Positions 5,407 to 41,835 of a stretch of DNA of 64,000 nucleotides are shown here, piece after piece. Position numbers and translations under genes: made by a program. Source of the DNA: Anaerolineales bacterium (GTDB lineage Bacteria > Chloroflexota > Anaerolineae > Anaerolineales > E44-bin32); the NCBI GenBank assembly GCA_035455265.1, contig DATIFK010000002.1:3436-67435 (forward strand). Direction: 5' to 3'. The notes below the pieces were generated by a model, which worked only from the letters and a program-made list of their open reading frames with translations, did not search any database and had not been told where the DNA came from. Numbering within the stretch: position 1 is the stretch's first letter; every line of letters starts with the position of its first letter.

Positions 5407-5895
5407 TTATTTCAGCACAACCCATGCCCCCCAAGCGGCGGCCATGACAACGGCCAGCCCCAGCTTGACTCCCACCGACGCTCCGCAGCCGAGGGCCATC
5501 CCCACGGCGCTGCGGCCTGCCTGGCGGGCGTCGCGCAGACGCAGGTATTCGGCCAGGAACGTCCCGGCCAGCAGACCGACGAGGGCCCCGACGACCGAGA
5601 AGAAAACCAGGCCGATGAGACCCATCACCAGGCCTCCGAGAATTGCCCAGCCGGAGGCGCCGCCCAGGCGGGCGCCGGCCGAGCTGACCCACACCTCCGC
5701 CACCAAGCCGCCCAGCGCCGCGAGCGTCATCAGCCCGAACAGCCAGGGCCCCCACGCTCCCCAACCGACGACGACCCCATACACCAGACCGGCGACCCAC
5801 ATCATGACGAGATCGGGCAGGGCCGGCACGACGGCGCCGATGACTCCAATCACCATGACGACGCCGATGATGAGGGTGACGACGTCCGGTGTCAC
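5407..5895 (-). CDS. DUF456-type small integral membrane protein
   Basis: 162 aa, four or five Gly/Ala/Val-rich TM helices. The GTG start overlaps the serS stop (GTGA). Confidence 0.6.
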
Positions 5896-7172
5896 GCCTC
5901 ACCCTCCGGCTGGAGAACTGCGACACCACCCATCCACGGGCCGAGCACCTCAGGGACGATGACGCTTCCGTCGGCCTGCTGGTAGTTCTCGAGAACAGCG
6001 ATCAACGTCCGCGGCAAGGCCAGCCCGGATCCGTTGAGGGTGTGCACCGGAGTCGGTCGAGCCCCTTCCCTGGCGCGGTAGCGGATGTTGGCACGCCGCG
6101 CCTGGAAATCGCCGCAGTTCGACACCGATGACACCTCCAGCCATTCCTCCACGCCCGGCGCCCAGACCTCGACGTCGTAGGTCTTGCGCGCGGCGAAGCC
6201 CAGGTCGCCGGTGCACAGCAGCTTCACGCGGTGCGACAGGCCCAGGCCGAGGCACACCGCTTCGGCCTCGGCGAGCATCCGGTCGAGCTCTTCATCCGAC
6301 GACTCCGGCCGGCAGAAGACGTACATCTCGACCTTGTCGAACTGGTGGCCGCGCTTGATGCCGCGCACATCGCGCCCGGCCGACATCTTCTCCCGCCGGA
6401 AGCACGGCGTATAGGCGGCGTAGCGCCGCGGCAGGGACTCGGCCTCGAGGATCTCGTCCATGTGCAGGCCGGTCAACGGCACCTCGGCGGTCGGCACCAG
6501 CCACAAGTCTTCCTCGTGATCGCGGTAGAGGTTGTCCTCGAACTTGGGCAGTTGGCCGGCGGCGAACAGCGTCTGGCTGCGCACCAGAAACGGCGGATAC
6601 TTCTCGAGGTAGCCGGCCCGGGTGTGCAGGTCCAGCATCCAGGAAATCAGCGCCCGCTGCAACCGCGCCCCGGCCCCGCTCAGGACGTAGAAGCGCGAGC
6701 CGGTGATCTTGACGCCGCGCTCGAAATCCAGAATCCCCAGCGACGTCCCCAGGTCCCAATGCGGCCGGGGCTTGAAGTCGAAAGGCTTCGGTTCCCCTAC
6801 CGTCCGCACGACCACGTTGGCGGTTTCGTCCGGTCCGTCGGGCACGTCGGCCGCCGGCAGGTTGGGGATCGTCGCCAGGCGCTGCTGCAGGTCTTGCTCC
6901 ACCTGATGCACTTCCCGGTCCAGCGCTTCGATGCGTTCGCCGATGGAACGCATCGCCTCGATGCGCTCCTGGCGCGCCGCCGCCTCCGTCATTCGTCCGA
7001 TTTCCTTGGAGACCCGGTTGCGTTCCGCCTTGAGGGTTTCGACCTCACTCAAGCGTTGACGACGCCGCCCGTCGAGCTCGAGGATCTCGGCTACCGGCAC
7101 GGTGATCCCGCGGCGGCGCAACGACCGGTCGGCCTCATCGGCGTGATCGCGCAGGAACTGGATGTCGAGCAT
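5892..7172 (-). CDS. serS: Seryl-tRNA synthetase
   Basis: N-terminal coiled-coil arm ([10 protein letters not shown]...). Class II core motifs are present ([21 protein letters not shown], the TYDVEVW context, [18 protein letters not shown]). ATG 7172 follows GGAGG. Confidence 0.95.
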
Positions 7173-7488
7173 CGTCGCCTCCGGTCGAATGCAACGCCCC
7201 CTCATCCGCAGGACGAGGGGGCGCCCGTGGTGCCACCTGCATTCGTCCTGACCCGGCGATGACGTTCGGGCTCAGGACCTCGTGCGCGCTAACGGGCGGA
7301 CCCGGCTCCCTTACGGCGATTTCGCCCCTGCGGGAGCGACGGACGGCCGACGGGGCCGCCTTTGGCGGAGGGGATGATCGCCGGTCCTCTCACCGCCTCA
7401 CACCACCCGGCGGCTCTCTGAGAGAGGCAGAGAGCGATCGTGTCTCCGCGCCTGCGTCGTTGCACGGCGCCTGGAGGCGCCTTCGCTT
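7173..7488 (-). promoter_or_regulatory. T-box riboswitch leader of serS
   Basis: On the minus strand there are an AG-bulge/distal-loop pair (CAGAGAGCCGCC GGGTGGTGTGA GGCGG) and the conserved T-box sequence AATGCAGGTGGCACCACGGG (plus coordinates 7224-7243). The antiterminator arms are CAGGACGA/TCGTCCTG, followed by the competing helix CGCCCCCTC/GAGGGGGCG. A TATAAT at 7500-7495 (minus) is the likely -10. Confidence 0.7.
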
Positions 7489-7519
7489 GAAGCGATTATA
7501 CGCGCGAGAATGGCCGTTC

Positions 7520-7594
7520 CCAGGCACCAGTTCCCAGTTCCGAGTTTCCAGTGACAACTCAACACTGGGGACTGGGAACTGGAAACTGGGAACC
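7520..7594. repeat. Heptanucleotide tandem-repeat hairpin (STRR-like)
   Basis: CCAGGCA CCAGTTC CCAGTTC CGAGTTT CCAGTG, a 9-nt loop, then CACTGGG GACTGGG AACTGGA AACTGGG AACC. It ends 3 nt from the marR-family stop. Confidence 0.85.
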
Positions 7595-7596
7595 TT

Positions 7597-8049
7597 CTAC
7601 GTGGCCTCCCGCATACCGGCCAGCAGTTGCTCGAGCAGCCGCAACAGTGTCGCCTGCTCGCTGGGGCTCAACCGGCGCAGGGCGCGGCGCCAGCGCAGAT
7701 CGAGCCGGCGCGGCACGGCCCGCAGCAGCGCCCGGCCGCGTGGCGTCAGGCGCACCGCCACGCGCCGCCGGTCCCCGGCCGACCGCCGGCGCACCACCCA
7801 GCCGCGTCGCACCAGCCGCTCGACGATGGCGGTCATCGTGGCCGCATCCTGCAGGCTGGCTTCCGCCAGCGCCTTCATCCCCACTTCACGCCGCGCCGTC
7901 GCCAGGTGGACCAGCGGAACGTACTGCGCCACCGTCAAATGGAACGGCTCCAGGTCGTCCGCCAGCTGTTGGCGCACTCTCCACCACACTTGGAGCGCCA
8001 GCGGCAGCAGCGACCGTCCCTGGCGCCCCGGCCAATTGATTCGCAACAT
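7597..8049 (-). CDS. MarR family transcriptional regulator
   Basis: 150 aa. The winged-HTH pattern is LTVAQYVPLVHLA...MKALAEASLQDAATMTAIVERLVRRGWVVRRRSAGDRRRVAVRLTPRG. Confidence 0.85.
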   Translation of the reverse strand: MLRINWPGRQGRSLLPLALQVWWRVRQQLADDLEPFHLTVAQYVPLVHLATARREVGMKALAEASLQDAATMTAIVERLVRRGWVVRRRSAGDRRRVAVRLTPRGRALLRAVPRRLDLRWRRALRRLSPSEQATLLRLLEQLLAGMREAT

Positions 8050-8064
8050 AGACTATTTATAGCA
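8050..8064 (-). promoter_or_regulatory. Putative extended -10 (TGCTATAAA) 6 nt upstream of the MarR ATG (leaderless geometry)
   Basis: The minus strand reads TGC TATAAA TAGTCT ATG (8064 down to 8047). Confidence 0.45.
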
Positions 8065-8091
8065 CGAACGATCTCGACGGCCCGGCCATGA

Positions 8092-8120
8092 TTGACAAGC
8101 CGCGGTCTGCACCGTATGCT
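8092..8120 (+). promoter_or_regulatory. Sigma-70-type promoter TTGACA-17 nt-TATGCT for the oxoamine synthase operon
   Basis: TTGACA at 8092-8097, an exact 17-nt spacer, and TATGCT at 8115-8120. It is divergent from the MarR gene. Confidence 0.55.
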
Positions 8121-8198
8121 TGCTTTGGGCGCGAATGGCGCGCCCGTCTCATCCAACCACCGCTCCATCTCCCATCGCCGCATCGGACGAGGACCGCT

Positions 8199-9380
8199 AT
8201 GGACATCTTCGCCAAGTGTGGGGAGTTCACCGACGCCCGTCTGGCACAGGCGGCCGGGCTCTATCCGTACTTCCTGCCGCTCGAGGACACCGAAGGCACG
8301 GAGGTCGTCGTCGGCGGACGCCGTATCCTGATGATCGGTTCCAACAATTACCTGGGGCTGACCACCGATCCACGCGTGCGCCAGGCCTCGATCGACGCCG
8401 TGGCGCGCTACGGCACCTCGTGCACCGGCTCGCGCTTCCTCAACGGAACGCTCAAGCTGCACCAAGAGCTCGAGGCGCGCCTGGCGGCGTTCGTCTCCAA
8501 GCCGGCGGCGCTGGTCTTCAGCACCGGCTACCAGGTCAACCTGGGCACGATCTCCTGCCTCGTCGGCCGTGGCGACGTCGTCATTGCCGACAAGGACGAC
8601 CACGCCTCGATCGTCGACGGCTGTATGCTCGCCCTGGGCGAGCTGCGCCGCTTCAACCACAACGACCTCGCTCAGCTCGAACGCATCCTGACCGGTCTGG
8701 ACGAGAAGATCGGACGCCTGGTCGTGGTGGACGGCGTCTACTCGATGGGCGGCGATCTGGCTCCCGTCCCGCAGCTGATCGAGATCTGCCGCGCCCACGG
8801 CGCCCGCCTGATGCTCGACGACGCCCACTCGCTCGGCGTGATGGGCCACGGCCGTGGCACCGCCGCCCACTTCGGCGTGACCGACCAGGTCGACCTGATC
8901 ATGGGCACCTTCAGCAAGTCGTTTGCCTCGCTCGGTGGTTTCATCGCCGGCGACGACGAGGTCGTTCATTACATCCAGCACCACGCCCGGTCCCTGATCT
9001 TCAGCGCCTCGATGCCGGCCTCCAACGTCGCCGCCGTGCTGGCCGCCGTCGACATCATGGAGAAGGAACCGGAACGGGTCGATCGCCTGTGGGAAGTCGC
9101 CGAGCGGATGCGATCCGGGTTGAAGGCCATGGGATTCAACATGGGGCCCAGCGTCACGCCCATCATCCCCATCCGCACCGGCGATCAAGCGACCACCATT
9201 CTGGCCTGGAAGAAGTGCTTTGACGCGGGCCTGTACACCAACGCCGTGCTGGCGCCGGCGGTGCCTCCGGATGAGTGCCTGCTGCGCACCTCCTACATGG
9301 CCACGCACACCGACGAGCAGATCGACCGGGCGCTCAACATCCTGGGGGAGGTCGGGCGAGAGCTGGGACTCATCAACTAG
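8199..9380 (+). CDS. PLP-dependent alpha-oxoamine synthase, serine palmitoyltransferase-like
   Basis: Ordered motifs GSNNYLGL, GSRFLNGT, FSTGYQVNLG, DHASIVDG, DGVYSMGGDLAP, DDAHSLGV, the PLP-lysine motif GTFSKS, and SASMP. By eye it is closer to SPT than to BioF/Kbl. ATG 8199 lies downstream of the predicted promoter. Confidence 0.7.
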   Translation: MDIFAKCGEFTDARLAQAAGLYPYFLPLEDTEGTEVVVGGRRILMIGSNNYLGLTTDPRVRQASIDAVARYGTSCTGSRFLNGTLKLHQELEARLAAFVSKPAALVFSTGYQVNLGTISCLVGRGDVVIADKDDHASIVDGCMLALGELRRFNHNDLAQLERILTGLDEKIGRLVVVDGVYSMGGDLAPVPQLIEICRAHGARLMLDDAHSLGVMGHGRGTAAHFGVTDQVDLIMGTFSKSFASLGGFIAGDDEVVHYIQHHARSLIFSASMPASNVAAVLAAVDIMEKEPERVDRLWEVAERMRSGLKAMGFNMGPSVTPIIPIRTGDQATTILAWKKCFDAGLYTNAVLAPAVPPDECLLRTSYMATHTDEQIDRALNILGEVGRELGLIN

Positions 9381-9395
9381 GGGCCGGTGGTCATG

Positions 9396-9520
9396 CCCGG
9401 TTACCAGTCCCCAGTTTCCAGTTCCCAGCCTACAGGACCCGACCGCAGGACCGTCACCGCGAAGCGGCAACTGGCTACTGACCATCCATTCTGATCACTG
9501 ACCACCCACCACTGACCACT
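9396..9520. repeat. Heptanucleotide repeat arms separated by a spacer of about 40 nt
   Basis: The left arm is CCGGTTA CCAGTCC CCAGTTT CCAGTTC CCAGCC. The right arm carries ACTG-core heptads (AACTGG CTACTGA ... TCACTGA CCACCCA CCACTGA CCACT). Confidence 0.7.
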
Positions 9521-9532
9521 TCCTAAGCGCAC

Positions 9533-10519
9533 ATGGCCCCAGCCGAAACCGTTCTCGTCACCGGTGCCACCGGCTTCGTCGGCTCGAGGTTGTGCCGTGC
9601 CCTCGCCGCCGAAGGCTGCCGGGTGCGAGCCCTGCGCCGGCCCACCTCGAATCTCTCCGCCCTCGAAGGACTGCGCCTCGAGCTCATCACCGGTGACATC
9701 CTCGATCCCGAGTCGCTCGCCCGCGCCGTTCGCGGCGTCGATCTGGTCTTCCACGTCGCTGCCGAGTCGGCCTACTGGCGCCGTCCGGACGACGTCCTGC
9801 GATCGGCCGTGGCCGGGACGCGCTATATGCTCGAGGCGGCTCTCCAAGAGGGGGTGACCAAGGTCGTCCTCACCAGTTCCGTCGCCGCCATGGGCGTGCC
9901 ACTGCACGGGGAACTGCTCACCGAGGGTCACACGTTCCGTCTCCCCCAGGCTTTCTTTCCCTACGGCTACGCCAAGTACCAGTCGGAATTGACAGCCCTT
10001 CGTTTATCGGAGGGTCGCCTCCACCTAGTCATCGTCAACCCGTCCATCGTTCTCGGTCCCGGCGATCTGTATCAGATCAGCGGCTCCCTCATCACCGAGA
10101 CGGCACGCGGTCGGGCTTTCGTCTACAACGACGGCGGCGCCAACTACATCCACGTAGACGACGTTGCCGCCGGCCACATCGCCGCAGCCGCGCACGGCCG
10201 GCCCGGCGAGCGCCACATTCTCGGGGGCGAGAACCTGACGCATCGCCAGGCGCTCAGATCCATCGCCCAGATGGTCGGTGTCCGACCGCCGTGGCTTCAC
10301 CTGCCGGACGCTCTCGTCCCCGCCGCGGGCGCTCTGCTCGATGTGGCCGGCCGGTTCGTCCGCCTGCCCATGAACGGCGCGCAGATGCGCATCAGCCGTC
10401 AGCGCCTGTTCTGTGACACGGCCAAGGCTCAAGCAGAGTTGGGCTTCACTTCCACGCGGACCTTCCGCCAGGCCGCGCAAGAGGCCTATGATTGGTACCG
10501 TTCCGCCGGCATGATTTAG
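9533..10519 (+). CDS. Extended-SDR NAD(P)-dependent reductase (epimerase/dehydratase family), paralog 1
   Basis: Rossmann motif VTGATGFVGS, catalytic YGYAK (YxxxK), and NPSIVLGPGD. It is clearly paralogous to 22723-23730. Confidence 0.8.
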   Translation: MAPAETVLVTGATGFVGSRLCRALAAEGCRVRALRRPTSNLSALEGLRLELITGDILDPESLARAVRGVDLVFHVAAESAYWRRPDDVLRSAVAGTRYMLEAALQEGVTKVVLTSSVAAMGVPLHGELLTEGHTFRLPQAFFPYGYAKYQSELTALRLSEGRLHLVIVNPSIVLGPGDLYQISGSLITETARGRAFVYNDGGANYIHVDDVAAGHIAAAAHGRPGERHILGGENLTHRQALRSIAQMVGVRPPWLHLPDALVPAAGALLDVAGRFVRLPMNGAQMRISRQRLFCDTAKAQAELGFTSTRTFRQAAQEAYDWYRSAGMI

Positions 10520-10580
10520 AATGAGCATCCCGCGGGCCGGTGCTCGCGGGATTGTTCACGCAGAATCGGGCCGCGCCCGC

Positions 10581-11732
10581 ATGCCGAGCGGGTTGCGACC
10601 CAGAGCGGGAGCCGGGGTGCCTAAGGGAAAGCGTCTTCCTCCATCCACGCCGGCTACGCCAGCCTTCGTCCCGCCCTATCCACCAAGCTGGATCGACCGG
10701 CTCATGAGGTGGGTCGAGCGCATCCCCGGCCCGTTTTGGGTGGCCTACCTTGTGGCGGCCGTTGTCCTCGACCTCGCGCTGACCGCCGCTCTCTGGTCGG
10801 CAGGCACGGACCGAGCTGGAATTGTTACCCGTCTTCCTCTGTTCCTCGGCTTTGAAATCCCTGCCACTCTTGCCCTTGCTCACTACCTCAACCGGTCGGC
10901 TGCCAAGGCGCTCGATGAGTTCCGCCCCGTCCTGATCGCGACCGAGGCCGAATCCCTGACCTTTCGCTATCGACTGGTCACATTGCCACCCTCGGCGGCG
11001 CTCTGGTCAGGCATCGCCTTGCTCGTGGGCAATGTGATCATCGGCATGATGGCACCCCTTCTGGCCGGACAGCCTTCGCTCACCGCCCTCCAGGGGTTCC
11101 TTCAGCCGTTCCTTGTGGACGCGTCCAGGTCTCCGCTACCCATTGGGATCGACGTGGTTCTGCTGATCGTCTTCGCTTTGACCGTGGGAGCCGTGCTTTG
11201 GCACATCCTGCGCCAACTGGCCGTCATCAGCCTCATCTACAGCCGCCACACCAGGGTCAACCTCTTCAGGCTCGCCCCCCTGTATGCCCTCTCGCGCCAG
11301 ACGGCTCGAACCTCCATCGGACTGGTGCTCCTTTTCTCGGCGGCCCCGCTCGTCGTCCCCGAGGTGATGCGCCAGATGGGAAACCTCGTCTCTTCCGCAA
11401 TGGCCCTGCTCCTGGTGCTGGCTGTATTTATCGTGCCGTTGGTCGGCGTCCATCGGCTGCTGGATCGCGAGAAGGAGCGGCTGGTCAGCGAGAACGGGGT
11501 CATGATGGAGGCCGCCGTCGGCGAGTTGCACCGTCGCGTGACCAGCGGCAAGCTGCAGGCGATGGACGACATGAACAAAGTCATGGCCAGCCTGGAGATC
11601 GAGCGGGCGGCCCTGGTGCGGGTGCCCACATGGCCGTGGGATCCCGGGACATTGCGGACCGTGATGGCCGCCCTGTTCCTGCCCATCCTCATCTGGCTGA
11701 TCCAGTACGGATTGCAGAGGTTTCTGGGATGA
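10581..11732 (+). CDS. Uncharacterised 7-TM membrane protein, tandem paralog A
   Basis: Shares blocks FVPPYPPSWIDR, ALDEFRPVL, FRYRLVTLP, LRQL..I.LIYSRHT..NLFRLAPLYALS, GVHRLL..EKERL, MDDMNK..ASLEIE, and VPTWPWDPGTLR plus a final TM. ATG 10581 is preferred over ATG 10521 because it gives an N-terminal length like the other paralogs. Confidence 0.75.
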   Translation: MPSGLRPRAGAGVPKGKRLPPSTPATPAFVPPYPPSWIDRLMRWVERIPGPFWVAYLVAAVVLDLALTAALWSAGTDRAGIVTRLPLFLGFEIPATLALAHYLNRSAAKALDEFRPVLIATEAESLTFRYRLVTLPPSAALWSGIALLVGNVIIGMMAPLLAGQPSLTALQGFLQPFLVDASRSPLPIGIDVVLLIVFALTVGAVLWHILRQLAVISLIYSRHTRVNLFRLAPLYALSRQTARTSIGLVLLFSAAPLVVPEVMRQMGNLVSSAMALLLVLAVFIVPLVGVHRLLDREKERLVSENGVMMEAAVGELHRRVTSGKLQAMDDMNKVMASLEIERAALVRVPTWPWDPGTLRTVMAALFLPILIWLIQYGLQRFLG

Positions 11733-12898
11733 CATCCCGAAGATCTGCGCCTCCACCTCCTGCACGCAAGCTCGCTCCGACCGCCAGATCGCGGAACCTG
11801 TCTGAGCAGGCGTTCGTTCCTCCCTACCGACCCTCTTGGGTCGACCGATTCACCGACTGGGTCGATCGCCTGCCCGGGCCGGCGTGGCTTCCCTATGTCG
11901 TCCTGGCCCTGGCCGGCGCAGGCTTCTTCGTCGGCGTAGAAACGATCGCTGGCGATTATCGGCCGGGAGCCTACCTGACGCTGCACCTCTGGCTGGGGGC
12001 GGATGCCGCTTATCTTCTCGGCATGCTGCATCTGCTCGATCACGCCGCCGCCGACGCGCTGGAGGCGTTCCGCCCGGTCCTGATTCTCAACCGTTCGCCC
12101 GGCCAAGGTGCCTCGTCCGCCGGTTCGACCTTCGAAGAGATTCGCTATCGATTGACCACCCTTCCAGCCGGTCTCACCTGGGTGGCGGCGTTGCTCGGTG
12201 CGGTGCTCGGCCTGGGATTCCCGCTCGCCTTCATCCACCCGGGAGCTCCGGCCTTCTCTCTGGCGGGATCGATGGCCACCTTAGGCGTTTCAACTGTTCC
12301 GGCCGCCTCCGCCGCGATCCTCGCCCAATTCGTTGCGACGCAGGCCATCGCCGGAATCCTCGTCTACCATTCGATCCACCAGCTGCGAACGATCCACCTG
12401 ATCTATCGGGATCACTCCGGCGTCAACCTGTATCGGCTGCAGCCCTTGTATGCCTTTTCCGTGCCGTCGGCCCTCACCGCCGGCGGATGGGTGCTCTACA
12501 GCAGTCTTTGGTTCATCGCCGCGCCCAGCCTGCTGCATGAGTCCGGCAGTCTGGCGATGGCGGCCTTCTTTGTCCTGGTGGCTGGCGCGGCGTTCACCTG
12601 GCCCCTGTTGGGGATCCATCGGCGACTGCAGGTGGAGAAGAAGGCTCAGCTGGCTGAGAGCAACCAGCGATTCGAGGCGGCCGTGATCGAGCTCCGCCAC
12701 CGGTTCGACCGGCAACGGTTGACCCGGATGGACGATCTGCACAAGGCCATGGCGAGCCTCGACCTCGAGCAGACGGCCCTGCGCCGCATCCCGACCTGGC
12801 CGTGGGAGACTGGAACGCTGAGAGGGGTTATCGCCGCGTTGGTACTGCCGATCGTCATCTGGCTTCTCCAATTCGGCCTGGGAAGGCTGCTCGGATGA
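11729..12898 (+). CDS. Uncharacterised 7-TM membrane protein, tandem paralog B
   Basis: The ATG overlaps the paralog A stop (ATGA). It carries the same conserved blocks (FVPPYRPSWVDR ... IPTWPWETGTLR). Confidence 0.8.
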   Translation: MTSRRSAPPPPARKLAPTARSRNLSEQAFVPPYRPSWVDRFTDWVDRLPGPAWLPYVVLALAGAGFFVGVETIAGDYRPGAYLTLHLWLGADAAYLLGMLHLLDHAAADALEAFRPVLILNRSPGQGASSAGSTFEEIRYRLTTLPAGLTWVAALLGAVLGLGFPLAFIHPGAPAFSLAGSMATLGVSTVPAASAAILAQFVATQAIAGILVYHSIHQLRTIHLIYRDHSGVNLYRLQPLYAFSVPSALTAGGWVLYSSLWFIAAPSLLHESGSLAMAAFFVLVAGAAFTWPLLGIHRRLQVEKKAQLAESNQRFEAAVIELRHRFDRQRLTRMDDLHKAMASLDLEQTALRRIPTWPWETGTLRGVIAALVLPIVIWLLQFGLGRLLG

Positions 12899-12919
12899 GG
12901 TTGCCGTGATCTGCGACAA

Positions 12920-13015
12920 GGTCAGTCCTCAGTCGTCAGTCGCCGAGTTCAGCTGCCGCTGGCGCTAGACGGCAGGATCCTCGACGGCGGACTGAGCTCT
13001 GAGGACCTGAGGACG
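12920..13015. repeat. Heptanucleotide tandem-repeat hairpin (GTCAGTC type)
   Basis: GTCAGTC CTCAGTC GTCAGTC GCCGAGT TCAGCTG, then after a spacer GACTGAG CTCTGAG GACCTGAGGAC. It fills the gap between paralogs B and C. Confidence 0.7.
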
Positions 13016-13016
13016 T

Positions 13017-14120
13017 ATGAAACGGGCTTCGCGACGTGCCGCTCCAGCTCCCTTCGTCCCGCCCTACCCACCGTCCTGGTTCGATCGGCTCAGAGCGCGT
13101 TTGGACCGGGCCCGCGTCTCTCCCTATGTAGTGTATGCGCTCGTCGCTCTCGTCCTCTTCGTTCTACTGACGCTGGTCCAGTGGCGCGAAGGCGCGTACC
13201 CGGTGGGGGAAGTCAGGGCCTTCCACATCTTGTTTGCCGCTTGGCTTCCCTTCATGTTGGCTCTCATGCACTACCTGGACCATGTGGCCGACCGCGCCTT
13301 CGAGAAGTTCCGACCGTCTTTGTCGGCCACGCCCGACGAGAGCCTTTCGTTGCGCTACCGCCTGACGACGCTCCCGGCCGCGCCGGCCGCGCGCCTCGCC
13401 GGTGGTCTGGTGCTGGTGAACACTCTTCTGGTCCTGGTGGACAAGGGGTTTCTCCGGCCGGCGGCCGGAGCGAACGTGTTCGACCTCGGCCTGCAGCTCT
13501 TGCAGATCGCCCCGACACCTCTGTCCATCGCTGTGGTCGGCGCCCTCCTGCTTGGCGTTTGGTGGATCTCCGGAACCTTTCTGTATCACACGTTCCATCA
13601 GCTGCGTGTGATCAGCCGCATCTACGCCCGGCACACGCTGATTCGGCTCCTGCACCTCGGGCCGCTCTATAGCTTCTCCCGGGTCACACAGCAGACGACC
13701 ATCGGAATCCTTGCCTTCTTCTACATGTTCAGCCTCAGCGCCACCGGGTTCCGAAGTCAGCCCGGATTCCTCATCGCCGGCGGCATTCTCTTCGCCGCCG
13801 TCGCCGCCATTACCTTCGCCAGCCCACTGGTCGGGATCCATGACCTGCTGGTCTCGGAGAAGGATCGTCTGCTCGAGGCGAACACCCGTCGCCTGGAGGC
13901 CGGCATCGCAGACCTCCACCAGCAAATGGATCGGCGCGACCTGAGCGGCATGGACGACTTGAGCAAGGCCCTGGCCAGCCTGGATCTCGAACGGACTGTG
14001 TTGTCCCGCATCCCGACCTGGCCCTGGGAGCCGGGCACGCTGCGCGGTCTGGTGGCAGCGCTGCTCATCCCGGTCCTCATCTGGGCCATCCAGCTCGGCG
14101 CGGGACGACTGCTGCCATGA
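13017..14120 (+). CDS. Uncharacterised 7-TM membrane protein, tandem paralog C
   Basis: Carries the same conserved blocks (FVPPYPPSWFDR ... IPTWPWEPGTLR). Confidence 0.8.
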   Translation: MKRASRRAAPAPFVPPYPPSWFDRLRARLDRARVSPYVVYALVALVLFVLLTLVQWREGAYPVGEVRAFHILFAAWLPFMLALMHYLDHVADRAFEKFRPSLSATPDESLSLRYRLTTLPAAPAARLAGGLVLVNTLLVLVDKGFLRPAAGANVFDLGLQLLQIAPTPLSIAVVGALLLGVWWISGTFLYHTFHQLRVISRIYARHTLIRLLHLGPLYSFSRVTQQTTIGILAFFYMFSLSATGFRSQPGFLIAGGILFAAVAAITFASPLVGIHDLLVSEKDRLLEANTRRLEAGIADLHQQMDRRDLSGMDDLSKALASLDLERTVLSRIPTWPWEPGTLRGLVAALLIPVLIWAIQLGAGRLLP

Positions 14121-15190
14121 GCAAGCGCGCCGCCGCGGCCTCCCGGGAACCCGGGCCGCCTGCCTTCGCACCTCCCTACCCGCCGAGCCTTGTCGACCGA
14201 CTCATCGCGTGGCTCGACCGCCAGCCGGTGCCTGTCTGGCTGATTCTGCTGGCAGCCGCCGCCGTGGTGTTGGCGATCCTGACCGCCGTCCAATGGCGCG
14301 AGGGAGCGTATGCCGTCGGCACGTTCAATCCGCTCCATGCCATGGCCAGCGCCTACGTCCCATTCCTCGTCTGGCTCATCCGCTACCTCGATCGATCCGC
14401 CGCGAGCGCCCTGCAGGAATTCAGGCCCGCGCTCATGAGCGAATCCGAGGCGATGCCTTTGCGATACCGGCTCACGACGCTTCCGCGAACCGCAACGCTC
14501 TTCGTCGGCGGAGCCACGGCTTTGGCGATCGGCCTGATGGCGTGGCTGTTCTCTGCAGATTTGCGGTTGCTCGAGGTGGCTCCGACACTCTTGTCGGAGG
14601 CCGTGTTCGGCGCCGTCCTGATCGCCACCTGGTGGGCGACGGGGGTATTCGTTTACCACACGGTCCGTCAACTCGTGCTGATCCACGAGATTTACACTCG
14701 CCGCACACGCATCGACGTCTTTCAACTGACCCCGCTCTATGCCTTCTCGCACCACACGCGCCGGACGGCCGTCGCGATCCTGCTCTTTGTGTATCTGGAT
14801 TTCCTGATCGCCGACCCGACGCTCCGCTACCATCCGTTGAACCTCGGCGTCGGCGCGACGCTGGCCCTGCTCGCCGTGGTCGCCTTTGTCGGACCGCTGG
14901 GAGGAGTCCACCGCCTGCTGGCGGCCGAGAAGACGCGGCTCGTGGACGACAACGCCCGCCGCCTCGAAGCCGGGTTCCGCGAATTGCAGAAACGAATGGA
15001 CAGCCTGCGGCTTGCGGGTGCCGACGATCTGAACAAGACGCTCAGCAGCCTCGAGATCGAGCGAACGGCGCTGCTCCGCATTCCGACCTGGCCCTGGGAG
15101 CCTGGGACGATTCGCGGATTGGCGGCGGCTTTGCTCCTGCCGATCCTCATCTGGCTGATCCAGTTCGCTTTGGGTCGGTGGCTGGGATAA
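14117..15190 (+). CDS. Uncharacterised 7-TM membrane protein, tandem paralog D
   Basis: The ATG overlaps the paralog C stop (ATGA). It carries the same conserved blocks (FAPPYPPSLVDR ... IPTWPWEPGTIR). Confidence 0.8.
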   Translation: MSKRAAAASREPGPPAFAPPYPPSLVDRLIAWLDRQPVPVWLILLAAAAVVLAILTAVQWREGAYAVGTFNPLHAMASAYVPFLVWLIRYLDRSAASALQEFRPALMSESEAMPLRYRLTTLPRTATLFVGGATALAIGLMAWLFSADLRLLEVAPTLLSEAVFGAVLIATWWATGVFVYHTVRQLVLIHEIYTRRTRIDVFQLTPLYAFSHHTRRTAVAILLFVYLDFLIADPTLRYHPLNLGVGATLALLAVVAFVGPLGGVHRLLAAEKTRLVDDNARRLEAGFRELQKRMDSLRLAGADDLNKTLSSLEIERTALLRIPTWPWEPGTIRGLAAALLLPILIWLIQFALGRWLG

Positions 15191-15294
15191 GTCCGCGGTC
15201 AGGGGCCGGCGATCCGTCAGGCATCCGCCTGACCACCGAGAGACAACGCCTCGGCCCTCTCCCTTCGTACAGGTAACGCCCCCCGCAGCCGCCG

Positions 15295-15303
15295 TGGTAG
15301 GAT
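15295..15303 (+). promoter_or_regulatory. Putative extended -10 element TGGTAGGAT, 6 nt upstream of the ABC exporter start
   Basis: TGGTAGGAT at 15295-15303 and GTG at 15310. Confidence 0.35.
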
Positions 15304-15309
15304 GGCCGC

Positions 15310-17157
15310 GTGAAACCCCCCTGGGCTCGCCTGGCCGAGTGGTGGCCGTCGACGCGTGAGAAGATACGCGACGCGGCGATCAACGTCGTCCGCGCCTTTC
15401 AACTGGTGTGGCACTCGCACCCTCCGTCGGCCGCGCTGATGGCCGTCTGGACCTTGATCGGCGCGGCCTTGCCCGCCGGGCAGGCCTGGATCGGCAAGCT
15501 GATCGTCGACGCTGTGGTGGCCGCCATCCAGACTCACGTCGAGGCGATGGCCGGCCTGCGATCCGTGGCGCCCTTGCTGGCCGCCGAATTCGTTCTGCTC
15601 GTCGGGCAGGCGGGCATCAGCCAGGCGCGCAGCCTGACCGAGCACGTGCTCCATTCACGCCTCAACCTCAGCATCAACACACGCATCATCCGCAAGGCGC
15701 TTGAACTCGACCTGACGCACTTCGAGAACGCCGAGTACTACGACAAGCTTCAGAACGCCCGTCGCGAAGCCGACTGGCGCGGCCTGCAGATCGTCAACGG
15801 CGGCTTCTACCTGATTCAGAACGCCCTGACTCTGCTGTCCTTCGCCGCTCTGCTGATGCGTTTCAGCCCACTGCTGGCCGTGATCCTGTTCGTCGCCACG
15901 CTGCCGGCCTTCGTGGCGCAAAGCAGCTACGCCGATCTTACGTTTCGGGTCATCTCCTGGCGCGCTCCGGAAGCCCGCAAGCTCTCTTACCTCGAATACC
16001 TCCTGACCGACTACGACTCGGTCAAGGAAGTCAAGCTCTTCGGTCTGGGCGAACCGCTGCTGGGGCGCTACGCCGATCTGTTCTGGAAGTTCCTGCTCGA
16101 GGATCAGAGCATCGCCCAGCGCCGCAGCCTGGCCTCCTTCGGCTGGGGCCTGCTCGCCACGCTGACCTACTACGGCTCCTACGCGTGGATCGTGGTCCGG
16201 GCCGTCGGCGGGGCGATCACGCTGGGCGACATGACCCTCTACCTGGGGATCTTCCGCAGCAGCCAGCAGACCTTCGAGTCGATCTTCTTCGGGCTGAGCG
16301 AGCTCTACGAGAACGGCCTGTTCATGAGCAACCTGTTCGCCTTCCTGGAGCTGGCGCCGCAGCTCCCCGTCTCCGCTGATCCGGTTCGCCGCCTGCCGGC
16401 GAGGCGCACCGGTATCGAGTTCCAGGATGTGGCATTCCGCTACACCGGACACGACGACTACGCCGTGCGCGACATCAACCTGGTTGTCCATCCGGGTGAG
16501 AAGATCGCGCTGGTCGGGCCCAACGGCGCCGGCAAGACGACCCTCATCAAGCTGCTCACGCGCCTGTACGATCCGACGCGCGGCCGCATCCTGTTCGACG
16601 GGATCGATCTGCGCGACTACGATCCCGACTTGCTGCGCCGCCGCATCGGGGTGATCTTCCAGGACTACGTCCGCTATCACCTGACGGCGGCGGAGAACGT
16701 CGGCTTCGGCCAGATCGAAGCCCTGGGCGACCGGCCGCGCATCGAAACGGCGGCGGCCAAGAGCGGCGCCCACGACGTGATCACCGGCCTGCCCGAAGGC
16801 TACGAGACCACCCTCGGCCGATGGTTCTCCCGCGGCCGGGACCTCTCCGGCGGCGAGTGGCAGAAGATAGCCCTGGGCCGAGCCTTCATGCGCGAGTGCG
16901 ACATCCTGGTGCTGGACGAGCCGACCGCCGCACTCGACGCCGAGAACGAGCTGCTGGTCTTCCAGCGCTTCAAGCAGCTCACCGAGGACAAGATGGCTGT
17001 GCTCATCAGCCACCGCTTCTCCACGGTGCGCATGGCCGACCGTATCTACGTCCTCGACCAGGGGCGGATCATCGAGCAGGGCACCCACGACGACCTGCTG
17101 GCGCGCGGCGGCCGCTATGCGAGGTTGTTCACGCTCCAGGCGGAGTCGTATCGATAA
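15310..17157 (+). CDS. Fused TMD-NBD ABC exporter (MsbA/type I exporter-like)
   Basis: Six N-terminal TM helices. Walker A is GPNGAGKTT, the signature is LSGGEWQKIALGRAF, Walker B is ILVLDEPTAALD, and the H-loop is ISHR. Confidence 0.9.
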   Translation: MKPPWARLAEWWPSTREKIRDAAINVVRAFQLVWHSHPPSAALMAVWTLIGAALPAGQAWIGKLIVDAVVAAIQTHVEAMAGLRSVAPLLAAEFVLLVGQAGISQARSLTEHVLHSRLNLSINTRIIRKALELDLTHFENAEYYDKLQNARREADWRGLQIVNGGFYLIQNALTLLSFAALLMRFSPLLAVILFVATLPAFVAQSSYADLTFRVISWRAPEARKLSYLEYLLTDYDSVKEVKLFGLGEPLLGRYADLFWKFLLEDQSIAQRRSLASFGWGLLATLTYYGSYAWIVVRAVGGAITLGDMTLYLGIFRSSQQTFESIFFGLSELYENGLFMSNLFAFLELAPQLPVSADPVRRLPARRTGIEFQDVAFRYTGHDDYAVRDINLVVHPGEKIALVGPNGAGKTTLIKLLTRLYDPTRGRILFDGIDLRDYDPDLLRRRIGVIFQDYVRYHLTAAENVGFGQIEALGDRPRIETAAAKSGAHDVITGLPEGYETTLGRWFSRGRDLSGGEWQKIALGRAFMRECDILVLDEPTAALDAENELLVFQRFKQLTEDKMAVLISHRFSTVRMADRIYVLDQGRIIEQGTHDDLLARGGRYARLFTLQAESYR

Positions 17158-17182
17158 AGCCAGCGATCAGTGGTCGCTGGCT
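17158..17182 (+). terminator. Stem-loop immediately after the ABC exporter stop
   Basis: AGCCAGCGA TCAGTGG TCGCTGGCT forms a 9-bp stem. There is no U tract. Confidence 0.3.
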
Positions 17183-17222
17183 CGTGGTCAGCAGGCCGCG
17201 GGGGCGCCGTCCCCAGGAATCC

Positions 17223-17250
17223 GTAGGGGCACGCCGTGGCGTGCCCCTAC
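17223..17250. repeat. GTAGGGGC...GCCCCTAC palindromic element
   Basis: Perfect dyad GTAGGGGCACGCC GT GGCGTGCCCCTAC, in the convergent gap between the ABC exporter and bfr. Confidence 0.8.
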
Positions 17251-17316: not shown

Positions 17317-17787
17317 CTATTCCTCGACCTGGTTGGTGAGGTAGTTCTCCAGCCCCATCTGCTGGATCTGGTCCTGCTGGGCCTCGGCCCAGTCCCGGTG
17401 GCCCTCTTCCATGGTGAGGATCTTGGTCAGCAGCTCCACGGTGCCCTGGTCGTCCACCTCATGCCCCAGGCGGATCCCGGCGTTGTAGGCGGCAATGGCC
17501 CCGAGCTCGGACCCGCCGTCGTTGCCGATGATATCCGCCACCGACGAGCCGATCTGAATCGGGTTCAGCTTGGACGCGATCGGCGATCCTTCAAGGAAGA
17601 TGATCCGCTGGATCAGCCATTCGGCATGGTGCATCTCGTCGATCGCCTGCTTCTCGATGGCTTTGTGCAGGCGCTCGTAGCCCCAGTTGGCGCACATCTC
17701 GGAATGGACCATGTACTGGCTGATGGCGGTCAGTTCGTCGGCTAGCAGCTGGTTGAGCGTCGTCAGGATCTTGTCGTTGCCCTTCAT
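17317..17787 (-). CDS. bfr: Bacterioferritin
   Basis: 156 aa with LNQLLADELTAISQYMVHSEM, EMHHAEWLIQRI and EEGHRDW (ferroxidase-centre Glu/His pattern). Confidence 0.9.
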   Translation of the reverse strand: MKGNDKILTTLNQLLADELTAISQYMVHSEMCANWGYERLHKAIEKQAIDEMHHAEWLIQRIIFLEGSPIASKLNPIQIGSSVADIIGNDGGSELGAIAAYNAGIRLGHEVDDQGTVELLTKILTMEEGHRDWAEAQQDQIQQMGLENYLTNQVEE

Positions 17788-17854: not shown

Positions 17855-21412
<3,558 letters not shown>

Positions 21413-21608
21413 GGTCTCTCCTGCCCTACCGGGATCCCGTTCACCCCAGTCTAGGAGCCCCCTTGCCGGCGCCCCAGTACAGAGCGCAGGGGAAACTGGA
21501 GGACAGTTGTCACGTTTCGGCCGCCAGCCTCGGTTTAGCTGGTGGCTGGAAGCTCCCGGCAAGACACCGGGACGATGTGGCGGCTGGTAGCTGCGGGGAT
21601 CGACTTGT

Positions 21609-22610: not shown

Positions 22611-22646
22611 CGGATCTCTTCCTGAGGGACGGTGGCTCAAGTGTAC

Positions 22647-22690
22647 CGCTGTCGGCTGTCGGCTGTCCTCCGCCCGCTGTCCGCTGCCCG
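22647..22690. repeat. One-armed heptad run (GCTGTCG type)
   Basis: GCTGTCG GCTGTCG GCTGTCC TCCGCCC GCTGTCC GCTGCCC, in the divergent UbiA/SDR intergenic region. Confidence 0.65.
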
Positions 22691-22722: not shown

Positions 22723-23730
22723 ATGCGAGTTCTCGTTACGGGCGCCACAGGTTTCCTCGGCTCGCACATCGCCCGCGAGCTGGCCGACGTGCACGACGTC
22801 CGCGTCCTGGTTCGCCCGCAATCCTCCCGTCGCCTGTTGACCGGGATGCGGGTCGAGGAAGCCGTCGGCGATATGCTCGAGCCGGGGACGCTCGTGGAGG
22901 CGTGCCGCGGCATGGACGCCGTGGTCCACGCCGCCGCCAACATGCGCGGCGCGGGCGGTGCCGAGGCGCGCGTGGGCAGCCACACCCTCGGCGCCAGCCA
23001 CCTGGCCGCGGCCGCCCAGCGGGCTGGGGTGCGGCGGTTCGTCTACGTCTCCTCGGTCGCCGCGCTCGGAATCCCCGACGATCCCCCCTCCCCAACCGAC
23101 GCCCACGCCAGCATCCTGGACGAACGGCACGAGTGGAACGCGCCGCCGGAGATGTGGCCGTACGGCTACGCCAAGTACCAATCCGAGCGCCAGGTCCTGG
23201 CGGCCGGCGATTCGATGATGGACGTCGTCATCGTCAATCCATCCGTGGTCCTCGGGCCGGGTGATCTCCACCGCGTGTCCAACGCCATTGTCTGGTGGAT
23301 GCTGCGGGGGCGGAGTCTGCCGGTGATCGACGGCGGCGTGGGCGTGGTCCACGTCCGGGATGTAGCCGAGGGCGCACGCGCGGCGCTCGAGCGCGGCCGG
23401 GCGGGCGAGCGCTACATCCTCAGCGGTGCGAATTTGCGTGTCGTCGAGCTGCTGAACATCGTGGCCGAGGCTGTCGGTCGTCCGCCTCCGCGCCTTCGCA
23501 TCCCCTTCCACCTGGCGCGGGCGTTGGCCGAGGCAAGCGGCGGCATCGGCCGCCTGCTGCGGCCGGCGGCGCGGCCGGTCCTTGTGGAGCTGGCCGGGCG
23601 CTACTTCTACTACGACAACCGCAAGGCCCGGCGCGAGTTGGGAGTCGCTCTGGCGCGGACGGCCCTCGACGGCGCGCGCCAGGCGGCGGCGTGGTACCGC
23701 GAAGAGCAGTGGTCCGTGGCGAGTGGCTAG
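22723..23730 (+). CDS. Extended-SDR NAD(P)-dependent reductase (epimerase/dehydratase family), paralog 2
   Basis: Motifs VTGATGFLGS, YGYAKYQSE and NPSVVLGPGD. The last 8 codons are encoded by the heptad repeat. Confidence 0.8.
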   Translation: MRVLVTGATGFLGSHIARELADVHDVRVLVRPQSSRRLLTGMRVEEAVGDMLEPGTLVEACRGMDAVVHAAANMRGAGGAEARVGSHTLGASHLAAAAQRAGVRRFVYVSSVAALGIPDDPPSPTDAHASILDERHEWNAPPEMWPYGYAKYQSERQVLAAGDSMMDVVIVNPSVVLGPGDLHRVSNAIVWWMLRGRSLPVIDGGVGVVHVRDVAEGARAALERGRAGERYILSGANLRVVELLNIVAEAVGRPPPRLRIPFHLARALAEASGGIGRLLRPAARPVLVELAGRYFYYDNRKARRELGVALARTALDGARQAAAWYREEQWSVASG

Positions 23731-23797
23731 TGGCCAGAAGGGGCCTGTGGACTGACCACTGACCACTGGCCACTGACCACTGGCCACTGACCGCTGC
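23707..23797. repeat. Heptanucleotide tandem-repeat hairpin (CCACTGR type) overlapping a CDS 3' end
   Basis: The left arm CAGTGGT CCGTGGC GAGTGGC TAGTGGC CAG contains the stop codon. The right arm is GGACTGA CCACTGA CCACTGG CCACTGA CCACTGG CCACTGA CCGCTGC. Confidence 0.85.
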
Positions 23798-33389: not shown

Positions 33390-33445
33390 GGTTTCCAGTC
33401 TCCAGTTGCCAGTTTCCAGTGGACTGGGAACTGGAAGCTGGGAAC
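33390..33445. repeat. Heptanucleotide tandem-repeat hairpin in a divergent intergenic region
   Basis: GGTTTCCAGTCTCCAGTTGCCAGTTTCCAGT is immediately followed by GGACTGGGAACTGGAAGCTGGGAAC. Confidence 0.85.
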
Positions 33446-33473
33446 TTGAACCCAAGGTCGGTGCAACGGCCCG

Positions 33474-41688: not shown

Positions 41689-41835
41689 CAGTTATCAGTT
41701 ATCAGTTATCAGTTTCTTGCAGCTTCAGGGCAATCATATGACCGAAGGCCCGCGGCGGCTCAGTCGGATGATGAGAACTGACCGTGCAGGCCAGGACAGG
41801 TATTGACTGATGACTGATGACTGGTGACTGACGAC
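41686..41835. repeat. Heptad repeat arms (ATCAGTT / TGACTGA) bracketing a spacer of about 90 nt
   Basis: The left arm is CATCAGTTATCAGTTATCAGTTATCAGTTTC (41686-41716) and overlaps the GT2 start codon. The right arm is TTGACTGATGACTGATGACTGGTGACTGACGAC (41803-41835) and abuts the permease stop. Confidence 0.8.

Follow-up and report, generated by a model that had tools for sequence, protein, structure and literature searches.

Predicted sphingolipid genes and an unannotated protein array in Anaerolineales

The gene cluster at positions 7597 to 17157 of a 64,000-nucleotide stretch of DNA from an Anaerolineales bacterium (contig DATIFK010000002.1; the whole stretch is referred to here as the window) raises the question of whether it encodes a dedicated system for making and exporting an amino-lipid, as a first-pass annotation had proposed, or a sphingolipid-synthesis core to which other genes have been added. 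The cluster consists of a divergent MarR gene followed by seven co-directional genes, and this gene set, described in the first-pass annotation, was borne out, with all eight genes verified. The first two co-directional genes are predicted to encode a serine palmitoyltransferase (SPT) and a short-chain dehydrogenase/reductase (SDR), and this SPT-plus-reductase core is well founded. The reading of the five downstream genes, which encode four seven-transmembrane (7-TM) proteins and an ATP-binding cassette (ABC) exporter, as part of a synthesis and export cluster is not established. We favor a model in which an SPT-SDR sphingolipid core has acquired a 7TMIC-like array, an ABCB exporter, and MarR; taken as a whole, we give this model slightly better than an even chance. 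The features of the locus are as follows.

7597 to 8049, minus strand: MarR-family transcriptional regulator (Pfam MarR_2/MarR, E of about 1e-9)
8092 to 8156, plus strand: promoter-like site TTGACA-17-TATGCT plus an imperfect palindrome, a candidate MarR operator
8199 to 9380, plus strand: predicted serine palmitoyltransferase, a pyridoxal phosphate-dependent alpha-oxoamine synthase of 393 residues (NCBIfam, PDB, active site, tree)
9396 to 9520, no strand assigned: the SPT-SDR gap, occupied by two tandem arrays of heptanucleotides, CCCAGTT x4.7 and CTGACCA x4.3 (Tandem Repeats Finder [TRF])
9533 to 10519, plus strand: extended SDR of 328 residues, proposed NADPH-dependent 3-ketosphinganine or 3-keto-ceramide reductase (Pfam Epimerase, 3Beta_HSD; NCBIfam)
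10521 to 11732, plus strand: 7-TM paralog 1, 403 residues, apparently Chloroflexota-specific family (paralog alignment)
11729 to 12898, plus strand: 7-TM paralog 2, 389 residues, start overlapping the paralog 1 stop by 4 nt (alignment)
13017 to 14120, plus strand: 7-TM paralog 3, 367 residues, the modeled member (AlphaFold2 model)
14117 to 15190, plus strand: 7-TM paralog 4, 357 residues, overlapping paralog 3 by 4 nt (alignment)
15310 to 17157, plus strand: ABCB-type half-transporter, a fusion of transmembrane domain (TMD) and nucleotide-binding domain (NBD) of 615 residues (Pfam ABC_tran; NCBIfam; PDB)
17158 to 17250, no strand assigned: a pair of strong hairpins (arms of 12 nt and 13 nt) in the gap that separates the ABC gene from the convergent bacterioferritin gene, where the operon probably ends

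The synthase groups with serine palmitoyltransferases

The start of the synthase was placed at 8199, where the protein begins MDIFAKCG; the longest open reading frame starts at 8088, but hundreds of 393-residue homologs all begin with this same sequence. The first-pass annotation had judged the protein to be SPT-like, rather than Kbl or BioF, from the motifs GSRFLNGT, FSTGYQVNLG, DGVYSMGGDLAP, GTFSKS, and GLKAMGF. All of these were found in the translation, and profile models, structure ranking, active-site residues, and phylogeny agreed with that judgment. The best NCBIfam model was that of the Bacteroidota SPT (SPT_CFB, NF047600) at 513.4 bits, compared with 369 bits for bioF and 332 bits for Kbl, each of which also lay under its own model's cut-off. 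Among PDB entries, the SPT of Sphingobacterium multivorum (3A2B/8GUH) ranked first at 414 bits, with 48.6% identity over 381 residues, ahead of sphingomonad SPTs (about 295 bits), cysteate acyltransferases (about 240 bits), Kbl (about 220 bits), and BioF (about 190 bits).

The active-site residues of the S. multivorum enzyme (PMC10196870) were mapped by alignment onto the window synthase, and 15 of the 16 were identical. His138, Asp210, His213, Thr241, and Lys244 of S. multivorum correspond to His135, Asp207, His210, Thr237, and Lys240, the last of which retains the Schiff-base lysine. Within the serine-binding network, Asn52, Gly80, Ser81, and Ser243 were identical, and Met271, a main-chain contact, was replaced by Ile. 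We also constructed a neighbor-joining tree containing Bacteroidota and sphingomonad SPTs together with Kbl and BioF of Escherichia coli, a small outgroup set without CFAT, ALAS, or CqsA. The synthase nested within the SPT clade, with 99% bootstrap support for its grouping with the Bacteroidota SPTs and 92% for the separation of the SPTs from Kbl, and its subclade within that clade was one of Chloroflexota and Spirochaetota. The first-pass annotation had held that its reading would fail if the synthase fell inside the Kbl or BioF clade; it fell outside both. Identity as Kbl or BioF is thus ruled out by the hidden Markov model scores, the PDB ranking, and the tree, and by all of the tests applied the synthase is, as judged from its sequence, an SPT. 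It shares with S. multivorum SPT its length, its soluble single-domain architecture, and its clade, and differs in a sub-threshold equivalog score and in belonging to a subclade without a characterized member.

Neither tdh-like nor bio genes were present near the window SPT. Public pipelines (JGI) name these proteins 8-amino-7-oxononanoate synthase or 2-amino-3-ketobutyrate CoA ligase (proteins P0004 to P0120), and this BioF/Kbl naming of SPT-like proteins in Chloroflexota looks like a systematic misannotation that hides sphingolipid potential.

The first-pass annotation had also stated that sphingolipid-type bases were not described for this lineage. That statement is outdated, because the sphingolipid potential of Anaerolineae was published in 2024: Ding et al. 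(PMC11334938) reported Spt-like proteins in 218 Chloroflexota metagenome-assembled genomes (MAGs) and, in the Black Sea, a correlation of Anaerolineae with ceramides, glycosyl-ceramides, and lysine-ceramides. A follow-up in 2025 (PMC12619533) proposed Chloroflexota as one source of sedimentary sphingolipids. Chloroflexota, Anaerolineae above all, rank with the most abundant bacteria of anoxic sediments, and their role as major sedimentary sphingolipid sources has been proposed from metagenomes only. The present locus offers that proposal a concrete, clonable two-gene unit, composed of SPT and a reductase that is not of the CerR type.

The reductase is a conserved SPT partner distinct from CerR

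The SDR carries GxxGxxG at residues 11 to 17, YxxxK at residues 144 to 148, and Arg35-Arg36 after the second strand; this Arg-Arg pair suggests a preference for NADPH. Its best NCBIfam model was HpnA (TIGR03466), at 285.8 bits against a cut-off of 367.65, followed by SdmB (NF052578, 152 bits) and OleD (NF042422, 107 bits). The best structure was PDB 3WJ7 (212 bits), followed by cinnamoyl-CoA and dihydroflavonol reductases. HpnA, OleD, SdmB, and 3WJ7 represent NAD(P)-dependent enzymes tied to lipid substrates, and the nearest characterized relatives are lipid ketoreductases and dehydrogenases (OleD, SdmB, 3-beta-HSD). The window SDR differs from these enzymes in scoring below every curated cut-off and in having SPT as its conserved partner; no hopanoid, olefin, or sterol genes were found among the neighbors scanned, a search that did not include a window-wide scan for squalene-hopene cyclase. 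A threonine dehydrogenase identity, which the first-pass annotation had named as a result that would count against it, was rejected, as no such enzyme was among the best 60 PDB matches listed or the best 25 of 49 NCBIfam matches.

SPT and SDR genes were adjacent in loci L001 to L005 and L081 to L085 and in 14 to 21 metagenome contigs, down to SDR identities of 49 to 52%, and the SPT stop overlapped the SDR start in L003 and L004. The synteny expected by the first-pass annotation was therefore found for the SPT-SDR pair: orthologs of the SDR directly follow SPT in close relatives, and the SPT-adjacent Anaerolineales SDRs formed a clade with 100% support. An extended SDR is likewise paired with SPT in Sphingomonas, Desulfarculaceae, Acidobacteria, and Saprospiraceae; SPT-adjacent SDRs were recovered from all four, in Sphingomonas from the CerR position, and HpnA was the best model for every one. 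However, a split with 92% support separated the Anaerolineales SDRs from the SPT-adjacent SDRs of Sphingomonas and the other phyla, and the Anaerolineales SPT-linked SDRs grouped with paralogs from their own genomes. The window SDR matched the Sphingomonas CerR-position SDR at about 30% identity (63 to 85 bits), and two SDR paralogs in the window scored alike. CerR orthology is ruled out by the 92% split and by the equal scores of these paralogs. Thus, of the parallel with Caulobacter drawn in the first-pass annotation, the part that stands is that an extended SDR is encoded beside spt, often with translational coupling; the SDR is not a CerR ortholog. Because its coupling to SPT is conserved and its relatives act on lipid keto groups, we propose that it serves as a 3-ketosphinganine or keto-ceramide reductase.

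The two HpnA-like SDR paralogs lie at 22723 to 23730 (plus strand) and 27102 to 28118 (minus strand) and are 41% and 30% identical to the SPT-linked SDR, respectively. A GAF-PAS histidine kinase gene is located between them (23862 to 26981, plus strand), and a counterpart of the first paralog occurs a few kilobases past the gene for pyruvate:ferredoxin oxidoreductase (PFOR) in L003 to L005 and L084.

In more distant Anaerolineae the neighbors of SPT were heterogeneous and included DUF3048, RIO kinase, GFO/IDH/MocA, AMP-binding, and PHGDH-like proteins. A DUF3048 protein is encoded directly after SPT in L008 and L009. In L009, an Anaerolineae genome, a D-3-phosphoglycerate-dehydrogenase-like gene (2-Hacid_dh; 8625 to 9638, plus strand) lies just upstream of SPT (10001 to 11179) and possibly links serine supply to the pathway.

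Genes resembling ceramide synthase occur elsewhere in Anaerolineae

The first-pass annotation had noted that the cluster contains no acyl carrier protein (ACP) and no ceramide-synthase-like acyltransferase, and this holds within the window. No ACP gene was found there, the intergenic gaps being at most 152 bp, and tblastn with proteins resembling the bacterial ceramide synthase (bCerS) detected no such gene in the 64 kb (E > 0.08). The Sphingomonas cluster genes for ACP, acyl-ACP synthetase, and bCerS were sought in the window, and none was present. Similarly, no bCerS gene was located within 10 kb of SPT in any Anaerolineae or spirochete locus examined.

The gene for a double-GNAT protein of about 375 residues, which matches the published bCerS, neighbors SPT in Desulfarculaceae, Planctomycetota, Acidobacteria, Brevinema, and Saprospiraceae and is 6 to 7 kb distant from it in Sphingomonas; overall, a bCerS-like gene occurred together with both SPT and SDR in 41 of 80 loci. 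A scan of species-representative genomes identified bCerS-like genes in six Anaerolineae/Chloroflexi MAGs (L272, L277, L303, L310, L321, and L333), none of which had SPT or SDR within 6 kb. Because they are unlinked in these six genomes, ceramide genes appear to be dispersed in Anaerolineae/Chloroflexi, and the locally missing acyltransferase therefore does not require a new route. The case for an unusual route that the first-pass annotation had drawn from this absence is weakened.

Compact operons of spt, a bCerS-like double GNAT, and an SDR were observed in Acidobacteria, in Saprospiraceae, and in one unclassified MAG, and spt-bCerS pairs were observed in Planctomycetota, Desulfarculaceae, and Brevinema (operons and pairs together: L025, 1385 to 4655; L041, 10001 to 13267; L028, 2049 to 5384; L015/L016; and L023 to L027). 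These loci can serve as useful references for ceramide synthesis in bacteria other than Proteobacteria and Bacteroidales.

The Anaerolineales operon resembles the spt-bcerS-SDR loci of Acidobacteria, Saprospiraceae, Planctomycetota, and Desulfarculaceae in the clade of its SPT and in the pairing with an SDR that matches the HpnA model. In those loci the double-GNAT gene stands beside spt, between spt and the SDR in Saprospiraceae and Acidobacteria, whereas the Anaerolineales operon lacks it and instead carries the 7-TM array and the ABC exporter. With the spt-acp-cerR...bcerS arrangement of Caulobacter and Sphingomonas it shares an SPT beside an extended-SDR reductase, in keeping with condensation followed by keto reduction. 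It differs from the alphaproteobacterial cluster in that the window has no dedicated ACP, acyl-ACP synthetase, or bCerS and in that its SDR lies on the other side of the 92% split from the CerR type. A periplasmic reduction step is unlikely, since the host is presumably monoderm. What is new in the core would thus be the different reductase lineage, the absence of linked ACP and bCerS genes, and the presumed monoderm host.

The 7-TM proteins form an unannotated family, apparently restricted to Chloroflexota

The four polytopic proteins are paralogous, as the first-pass annotation had recognized, paralogs 2 to 4 being 39 to 44% identical to paralog 1, and their seven helices were backed by AlphaFold models and hydropathy. 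They had no match in Pfam, NCBIfam, or PADLOC, Pfam was also empty for all 56 members of the family alignment, and a sequence-profile search of the PDB with the family yielded coiled-coil noise alone. A profile search for the family itself returned 3,063 clusters at 50% identity, 884 of them at E <= 1e-30, and in species-representative genomes 17 of 17 matches were to Chloroflexota. On these searches the family is apparently restricted to Chloroflexota and unannotated.

Members of the family were found in two settings. In the first, single genes or short arrays stand amid transposases, MFS transporters, carotenoid genes, and TIR-STAND genes; about 39 metagenome contigs and several genomes carried single members, whose neighbors were unrelated where the flank sufficed to judge, and no conserved partner gene was found for these stand-alone genes. 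In the second, which is confined to the sublineage of the window, arrays of 1 to 8 or more copies come right after the SPT-linked SDR. The SDR was directly upstream of a 7-TM array in 21 metagenome contigs, of which 14 also showed SPT and 12 the ABC gene directly downstream. Multi-copy arrays whose upstream side was visible directly followed the SDR in every metagenome contig; among genome loci, L093, L094, L095, and L102 were exceptions. In L003 to L005, SPT-SDR is followed directly by PFOR, with no 7-TM or ABC gene in the cluster, and in one MAG the SPT-SDR pair (L003) and the 7-TM genes (L093) are on separate contigs. The unity of the cluster assumed in the first-pass annotation was therefore upheld only in part: SPT and SDR are syntenic, but the 7-TM and ABC genes follow them in one sublineage only and elsewhere are absent from the cluster or stand alone.

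The interval between SDR and PFOR is a variable slot, which can hold FeoB, bacterioferritin, a PD40-repeat protein, 7-TM arrays, and/or an ABC exporter. It is empty in L003 to L005 and contains FeoB in L082 (16370 to 17491) and L090 (6236 to 8149), bacterioferritin in the window (17317 to 17787), and PD40 in L087 (374 to 2146).

Two AlphaFold models of family members had pLDDT values of 91 and 95. That of paralog 3 (AlphaFold2; pLDDT 91, pTM 0.85) was all-helical with the last helix split. The predicted topology is N-in/C-out, with 27 Lys and Arg residues inside and 3 outside; in the model the outer loops are short and the inner loops long, and TM4 and TM6 reach into the cytoplasm. TM4 spans residues 168 to 205, a further helix spans residues 249 to 305, and TM7 is divided into residues 312 to 331 and 339 to 365 by the break IPTWPWEPG, in which the invariant PTWPW turn separates a cytoplasmic from a membrane part. 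The conserved motifs lie essentially all on the cytoplasmic face (the "anchor" and TM7b), with variable membrane and outer parts.

This architecture agrees in each point with the published account of the 7TMIC superfamily, for which bacterial members have been reported (Himmel, Moi & Benton 2023; 10.1101/2023.08.30.555482). The likeness to Gr43a, BmGr9, and Orco/OR5 comprises seven helices, the N-in/C-out orientation, short outer and long inner loops, the cytoplasmic extension of TM4 and TM6, the split TM7, and conservation on the anchor and TM7b; the difference is that there was no sequence-profile link and that TM-scores were 0.30 to 0.36. In Foldseek searches of the PDB, the top two matches of the second model were Drosophila Gr43a (probability 0.95 to 0.96, E of 0.07, TM-score 0.33 to 0.36), and insect gustatory receptor (GR) and odorant receptor (OR) chains made up 11 of its top 26 matches and 3 of the top 20 for the first model. 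None of the matches had E < 0.07, and neither the ceramide synthase (TLC) fold nor MBOAT nor any further acyltransferase fold was among them. The GR motif TYhhhhhQF was considered as sequence evidence and rejected as weak, as the motif itself is absent and a Q-aromatic pair occurs only in the SPT-linked subfamily.

On these models, the best current reading of the 7-TM proteins is as 7TMIC-like receptor or channel subunits, for which we would put the odds at roughly even. An enzymatic role in lipid synthesis is less likely, because copy number is volatile, stand-alone members exist, and no acyltransferase-like fold was matched, and because the matches to the confident models were topped, although weakly, by insect GR/OR chains. 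Variation from 1 to 8 or more copies between close relatives is typical of receptor families and not of pathway enzymes. A more specific idea is that the 7-TM genes encode bacterial 7TMICs that depend on or respond to the sphingolipid, which would gate them or line their pore, the alternative being that they are a novel, membrane-bound type of N-acyltransferase taking the place of bCerS in this lineage; we regard this idea as unlikely.

The ABC exporter is a generic half-transporter

The first-pass annotation had called the ABC protein MsbA-like, a description that is adequate at the level of the ABCB family and goes too far beyond it. Scores were far below the MsbA equivalog cut-offs (MsbA_rel, 279 bits against 780; TIGR02203, 272.8 against 602), and NF008381 gave 214 bits against 867. 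PDB matches included ABCB1/4/11/19, Rv1273c/72c, TmrAB, and MsbA, and the similarity of the protein to MsbA did not exceed that to multidrug or mitochondrial ABCB proteins. It is like MsbA and other ABCB half-transporters in being a TMD-NBD fusion of about 600 residues with Walker and signature motifs and in scoring about 200 bits to MsbA, TmrAB, and Rv1273c/72c; it differs from MsbA in its host, presumably a monoderm without lipopolysaccharide and hence with no lipid A to export. Judged by these matches, it is a generic ABCB-type half-transporter. The gene follows the 7-TM array in 12 metagenome contigs, at 64 to 96% identity. The protein might conceivably act as a flippase for the sphingolipid, but this assignment is unsupported.

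In a Promineifilaceae locus (L091, 7898 to 11134), the gene for a full ABC exporter (ABC_membrane plus ABC_tran) immediately precedes a lone 7-TM gene, and no SPT gene lies close by. The NBD region of this exporter is 39% identical to that of the window protein, and this locus is the only hint of a link between 7-TM and ABC genes that is independent of lipid genes.

Operon structure and MarR

The SDR stop and the start of paralog 1 are separated by a 1-nt gap, and paralogs 1 and 2 as well as 3 and 4 are joined by 4-nt ATGA overlaps. A sigma-70-like promoter was matched only once in 10.5 kb, at 8092 to 8120 in the MarR-synthase gap (10 of 12 positions), with the imperfect palindrome (8125 to 8156) just 3' of it. 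No strong hairpin was found within the operon, both lying 3' of the ABC stop, and no riboswitch or other known RNA was found inside it. These junctions are operon-like, and by sequence the locus is one operon.

The MarR domain scored 39.4 bits against a Pfam threshold of 27 (PF12802) and 37.5 against 24.6 (PF01047). MarR lies upstream of SPT in ABC-carrying relatives (L001/L084, L085, L081, L190, L191, L207, and L222) and is absent in L003 to L005 and L082. Across genome loci, the MarR and ABC genes were gained and lost as a pair. This pattern is compatible with regulation of the entire operon by way of the divergent promoter and also with a MarR-efflux module that was added to the locus.

The closest genome was that of an Anaerolineales MAG, in which the synthase was 90% and its neighbors 77 to 84% identical; the exact window protein was not recorded in public contigs. 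The flanking genes are serS (5892 to 7205, minus strand), bacterioferritin (17317 to 17787, minus strand), and PFOR (17855 to 21562, minus strand).

Proposed pathway and alternative explanations

In the model that we favor, SPT would form 3-ketosphinganine by condensation of L-serine and a long-chain acyl-CoA or acyl-ACP, and the co-translated HpnA-like SDR would reduce the C3 keto group with NADPH to give sphinganine or, alternatively, would reduce keto-ceramide after acylation, as proposed for Caulobacter. A bCerS-type GNAT, whose gene would lie at another site in the genome as it does in other Anaerolineae, would carry out the N-acylation that yields ceramide. The sublineage of the window would have extended the operon at its 3' end with an expandable 7-TM array and an ABCB exporter, accompanied by the divergent MarR, which probably represses the shared promoter. 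The 7-TM proteins would not be pathway enzymes and would most likely form homo- or hetero-oligomeric receptor/channel complexes, and the exporter may transport the lipid or some other substrate through what is presumably a single membrane. Homology, the conserved active site, and the conserved coupling of the genes support the two enzymatic steps, and the roles suggested for the 7-TM, ABC, and MarR proteins draw only on fold resemblance and operon membership.

Several observations weigh against this model. The SPT falls below the curated equivalog cut-offs (NF047600, 513.4 bits against 640; NF047599, 417 against 500). The SDR is not orthologous to CerR and has two paralogs within 20 kb, so its substrate is deduced from SPT adjacency. 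A bCerS in this genome is presumed, the 64-kb window having none, and sphingolipid synthesis in Chloroflexota is itself a prediction from genes and metagenome correlation. The GR/OR matches in Foldseek had E values of 0.07 to 1 and TM-scores of 0.30 to 0.36, under the usual significance, and ABC-exporter TMDs and designed helical bundles were also among the weak matches; only part of the family has the GR-like Q-aromatic pair with which TM7 ends. Finally, because the SDR-PFOR slot is variable, the 7-TM and ABC genes may be passengers unlinked to the lipid.

This last point leads to the alternative that the 7-TM array, the ABC gene, and MarR are a separate module, for example for sensing/efflux or stress, inserted into a permissive slot 3' of SPT-SDR. 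The range of slot contents, the joint gain and loss of MarR and ABC, and the 39%-identical exporter beside a lone 7-TM gene in L091 are all consistent with such a module, as is the pairing of MarR with an exporter, since MarR-regulated exporters are a common efflux arrangement. However, only 1 nt separates the array from the SDR stop, and neither a terminator nor a promoter-like site belongs to the array itself, which is thus likely co-transcribed with the lipid genes; moreover, multi-copy arrays directly follow the SDR wherever the upstream side is visible in metagenome contigs, although not in the four exceptional genome loci. We consider a separate module doubtful, yet it is the alternative to be taken most seriously. 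Less probable still is that the whole seven-gene unit is a dedicated amino-lipid system in which the 7-TM proteins supply N-acylation, in the manner of a membrane ceramide synthase, or head-group transfer, with the ABC protein acting as flippase. In its favor, contigs whose SDRs are only 52 to 70% identical share the order SPT-SDR-7TM(n)-ABC with its translational coupling, bCerS is missing near SPT in the Anaerolineae loci, invariant His, Glu-Lys, Ser, and Tyr residues of the 7-TM family face the cytoplasm and could be catalytic, and flippases for bacterial sphingolipids are still unknown (PMC11087976). Set against this are the close relatives with SPT-SDR but no 7-TM or ABC gene in the cluster (and the separate contigs of L003 and L093), the many single 7-TM genes with unrelated neighbors, a copy number that would be odd for an enzyme, best fold matches to receptor channels and none to a ceramide synthase or acyltransferase, and the existence of bCerS-like genes in Anaerolineae.

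The remaining alternative concerns the core itself: SPT and SDR might make a product different from the canonical sphingoid base, such as a 1-deoxy base from Ala or Gly, a cysteate sulfonolipid-type base, or a small amino-alcohol, or the synthase might be a misassigned BioF or Kbl. Public annotation, the sub-threshold SPT score, the ability of SPTs to take Ala and Gly (PMC10196870), and the report of 1-deoxyceramides from anaerobes (PMC11334938) point this way. All of the serine hydroxyl/carboxylate network residues (Asn52, Gly80, Ser81, His138, Thr241, and Ser243) are kept, however, the match to SPT (414 bits) exceeds that to cysteate acyltransferases (240 bits), Kbl and BioF are lower still and outside the clade, and tdh-like and bio genes are missing nearby, which together make this alternative very improbable.

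The most interesting aspect of the favored model, an SPT-SDR core with added genes, is that a receptor-like, Chloroflexota-specific 7-TM family appears to have been repeatedly expanded and co-transcribed with sphingolipid genes. The locus exposes a large unannotated family with a confident predicted structure and receptor-like gene expansion. If the resemblance to GR/OR channels is true, the arrays would be a tractable bacterial system for the 7TMIC superfamily, and their co-transcription with lipid genes would be the first functional or genomic-context hint for prokaryotic 7TMICs.

Other features of the window

Heptanucleotide tandem arrays (CCCAGTT, CTGACCA/ACTGACC, GACTGGA, and others; 3 to 6.6 copies) were observed in many intergenic gaps, two of them inside the operon. 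Array sites were 787 to 820, 7516 to 7593, 9396 to 9428, 9491 to 9520, 12921 to 12942, 22646 to 22690, 23751 to 23796, 33391 to 33446, 41683 to 41714, and 41804 to 41836. The sequence CCCAGTTCCCAG occurred 10 times at no more than one mismatch, against 0.38 expected, and the heptamer is enriched in the intergenic regions of the window. These arrays resemble the short tandemly repeated repetitive (STRR) heptamers of cyanobacteria. At 7516 to 7593, two opposed arrays form a long hairpin just past the MarR stop, and matches to miRNA families there are spurious because of this hairpin.

Directly upstream of serS and on the correct strand, a T-box leader was matched at 7206 to 7455 (minus strand), with a sub-threshold score of 28 bits against a gathering cut-off of 93 (local E of about 1e-4). 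The AGAGA, GGUGGUG, and CCGUUA motifs and the T-box motif AAUGCAGGUGGCACCACGGG are recognizable, and the element is probably a genuine GC-rich T-box riboswitch for seryl-tRNA synthetase. At the end of the window, a 27-nt tandem repeat with the unit TACGGGATGATGGGTGGCAATGGTGGC was present in 5.5 copies (63823 to 63971; 89% matches, TRF score 235), and with a period divisible by 3 it may code for a repetitive peptide rich in Gly and Met.

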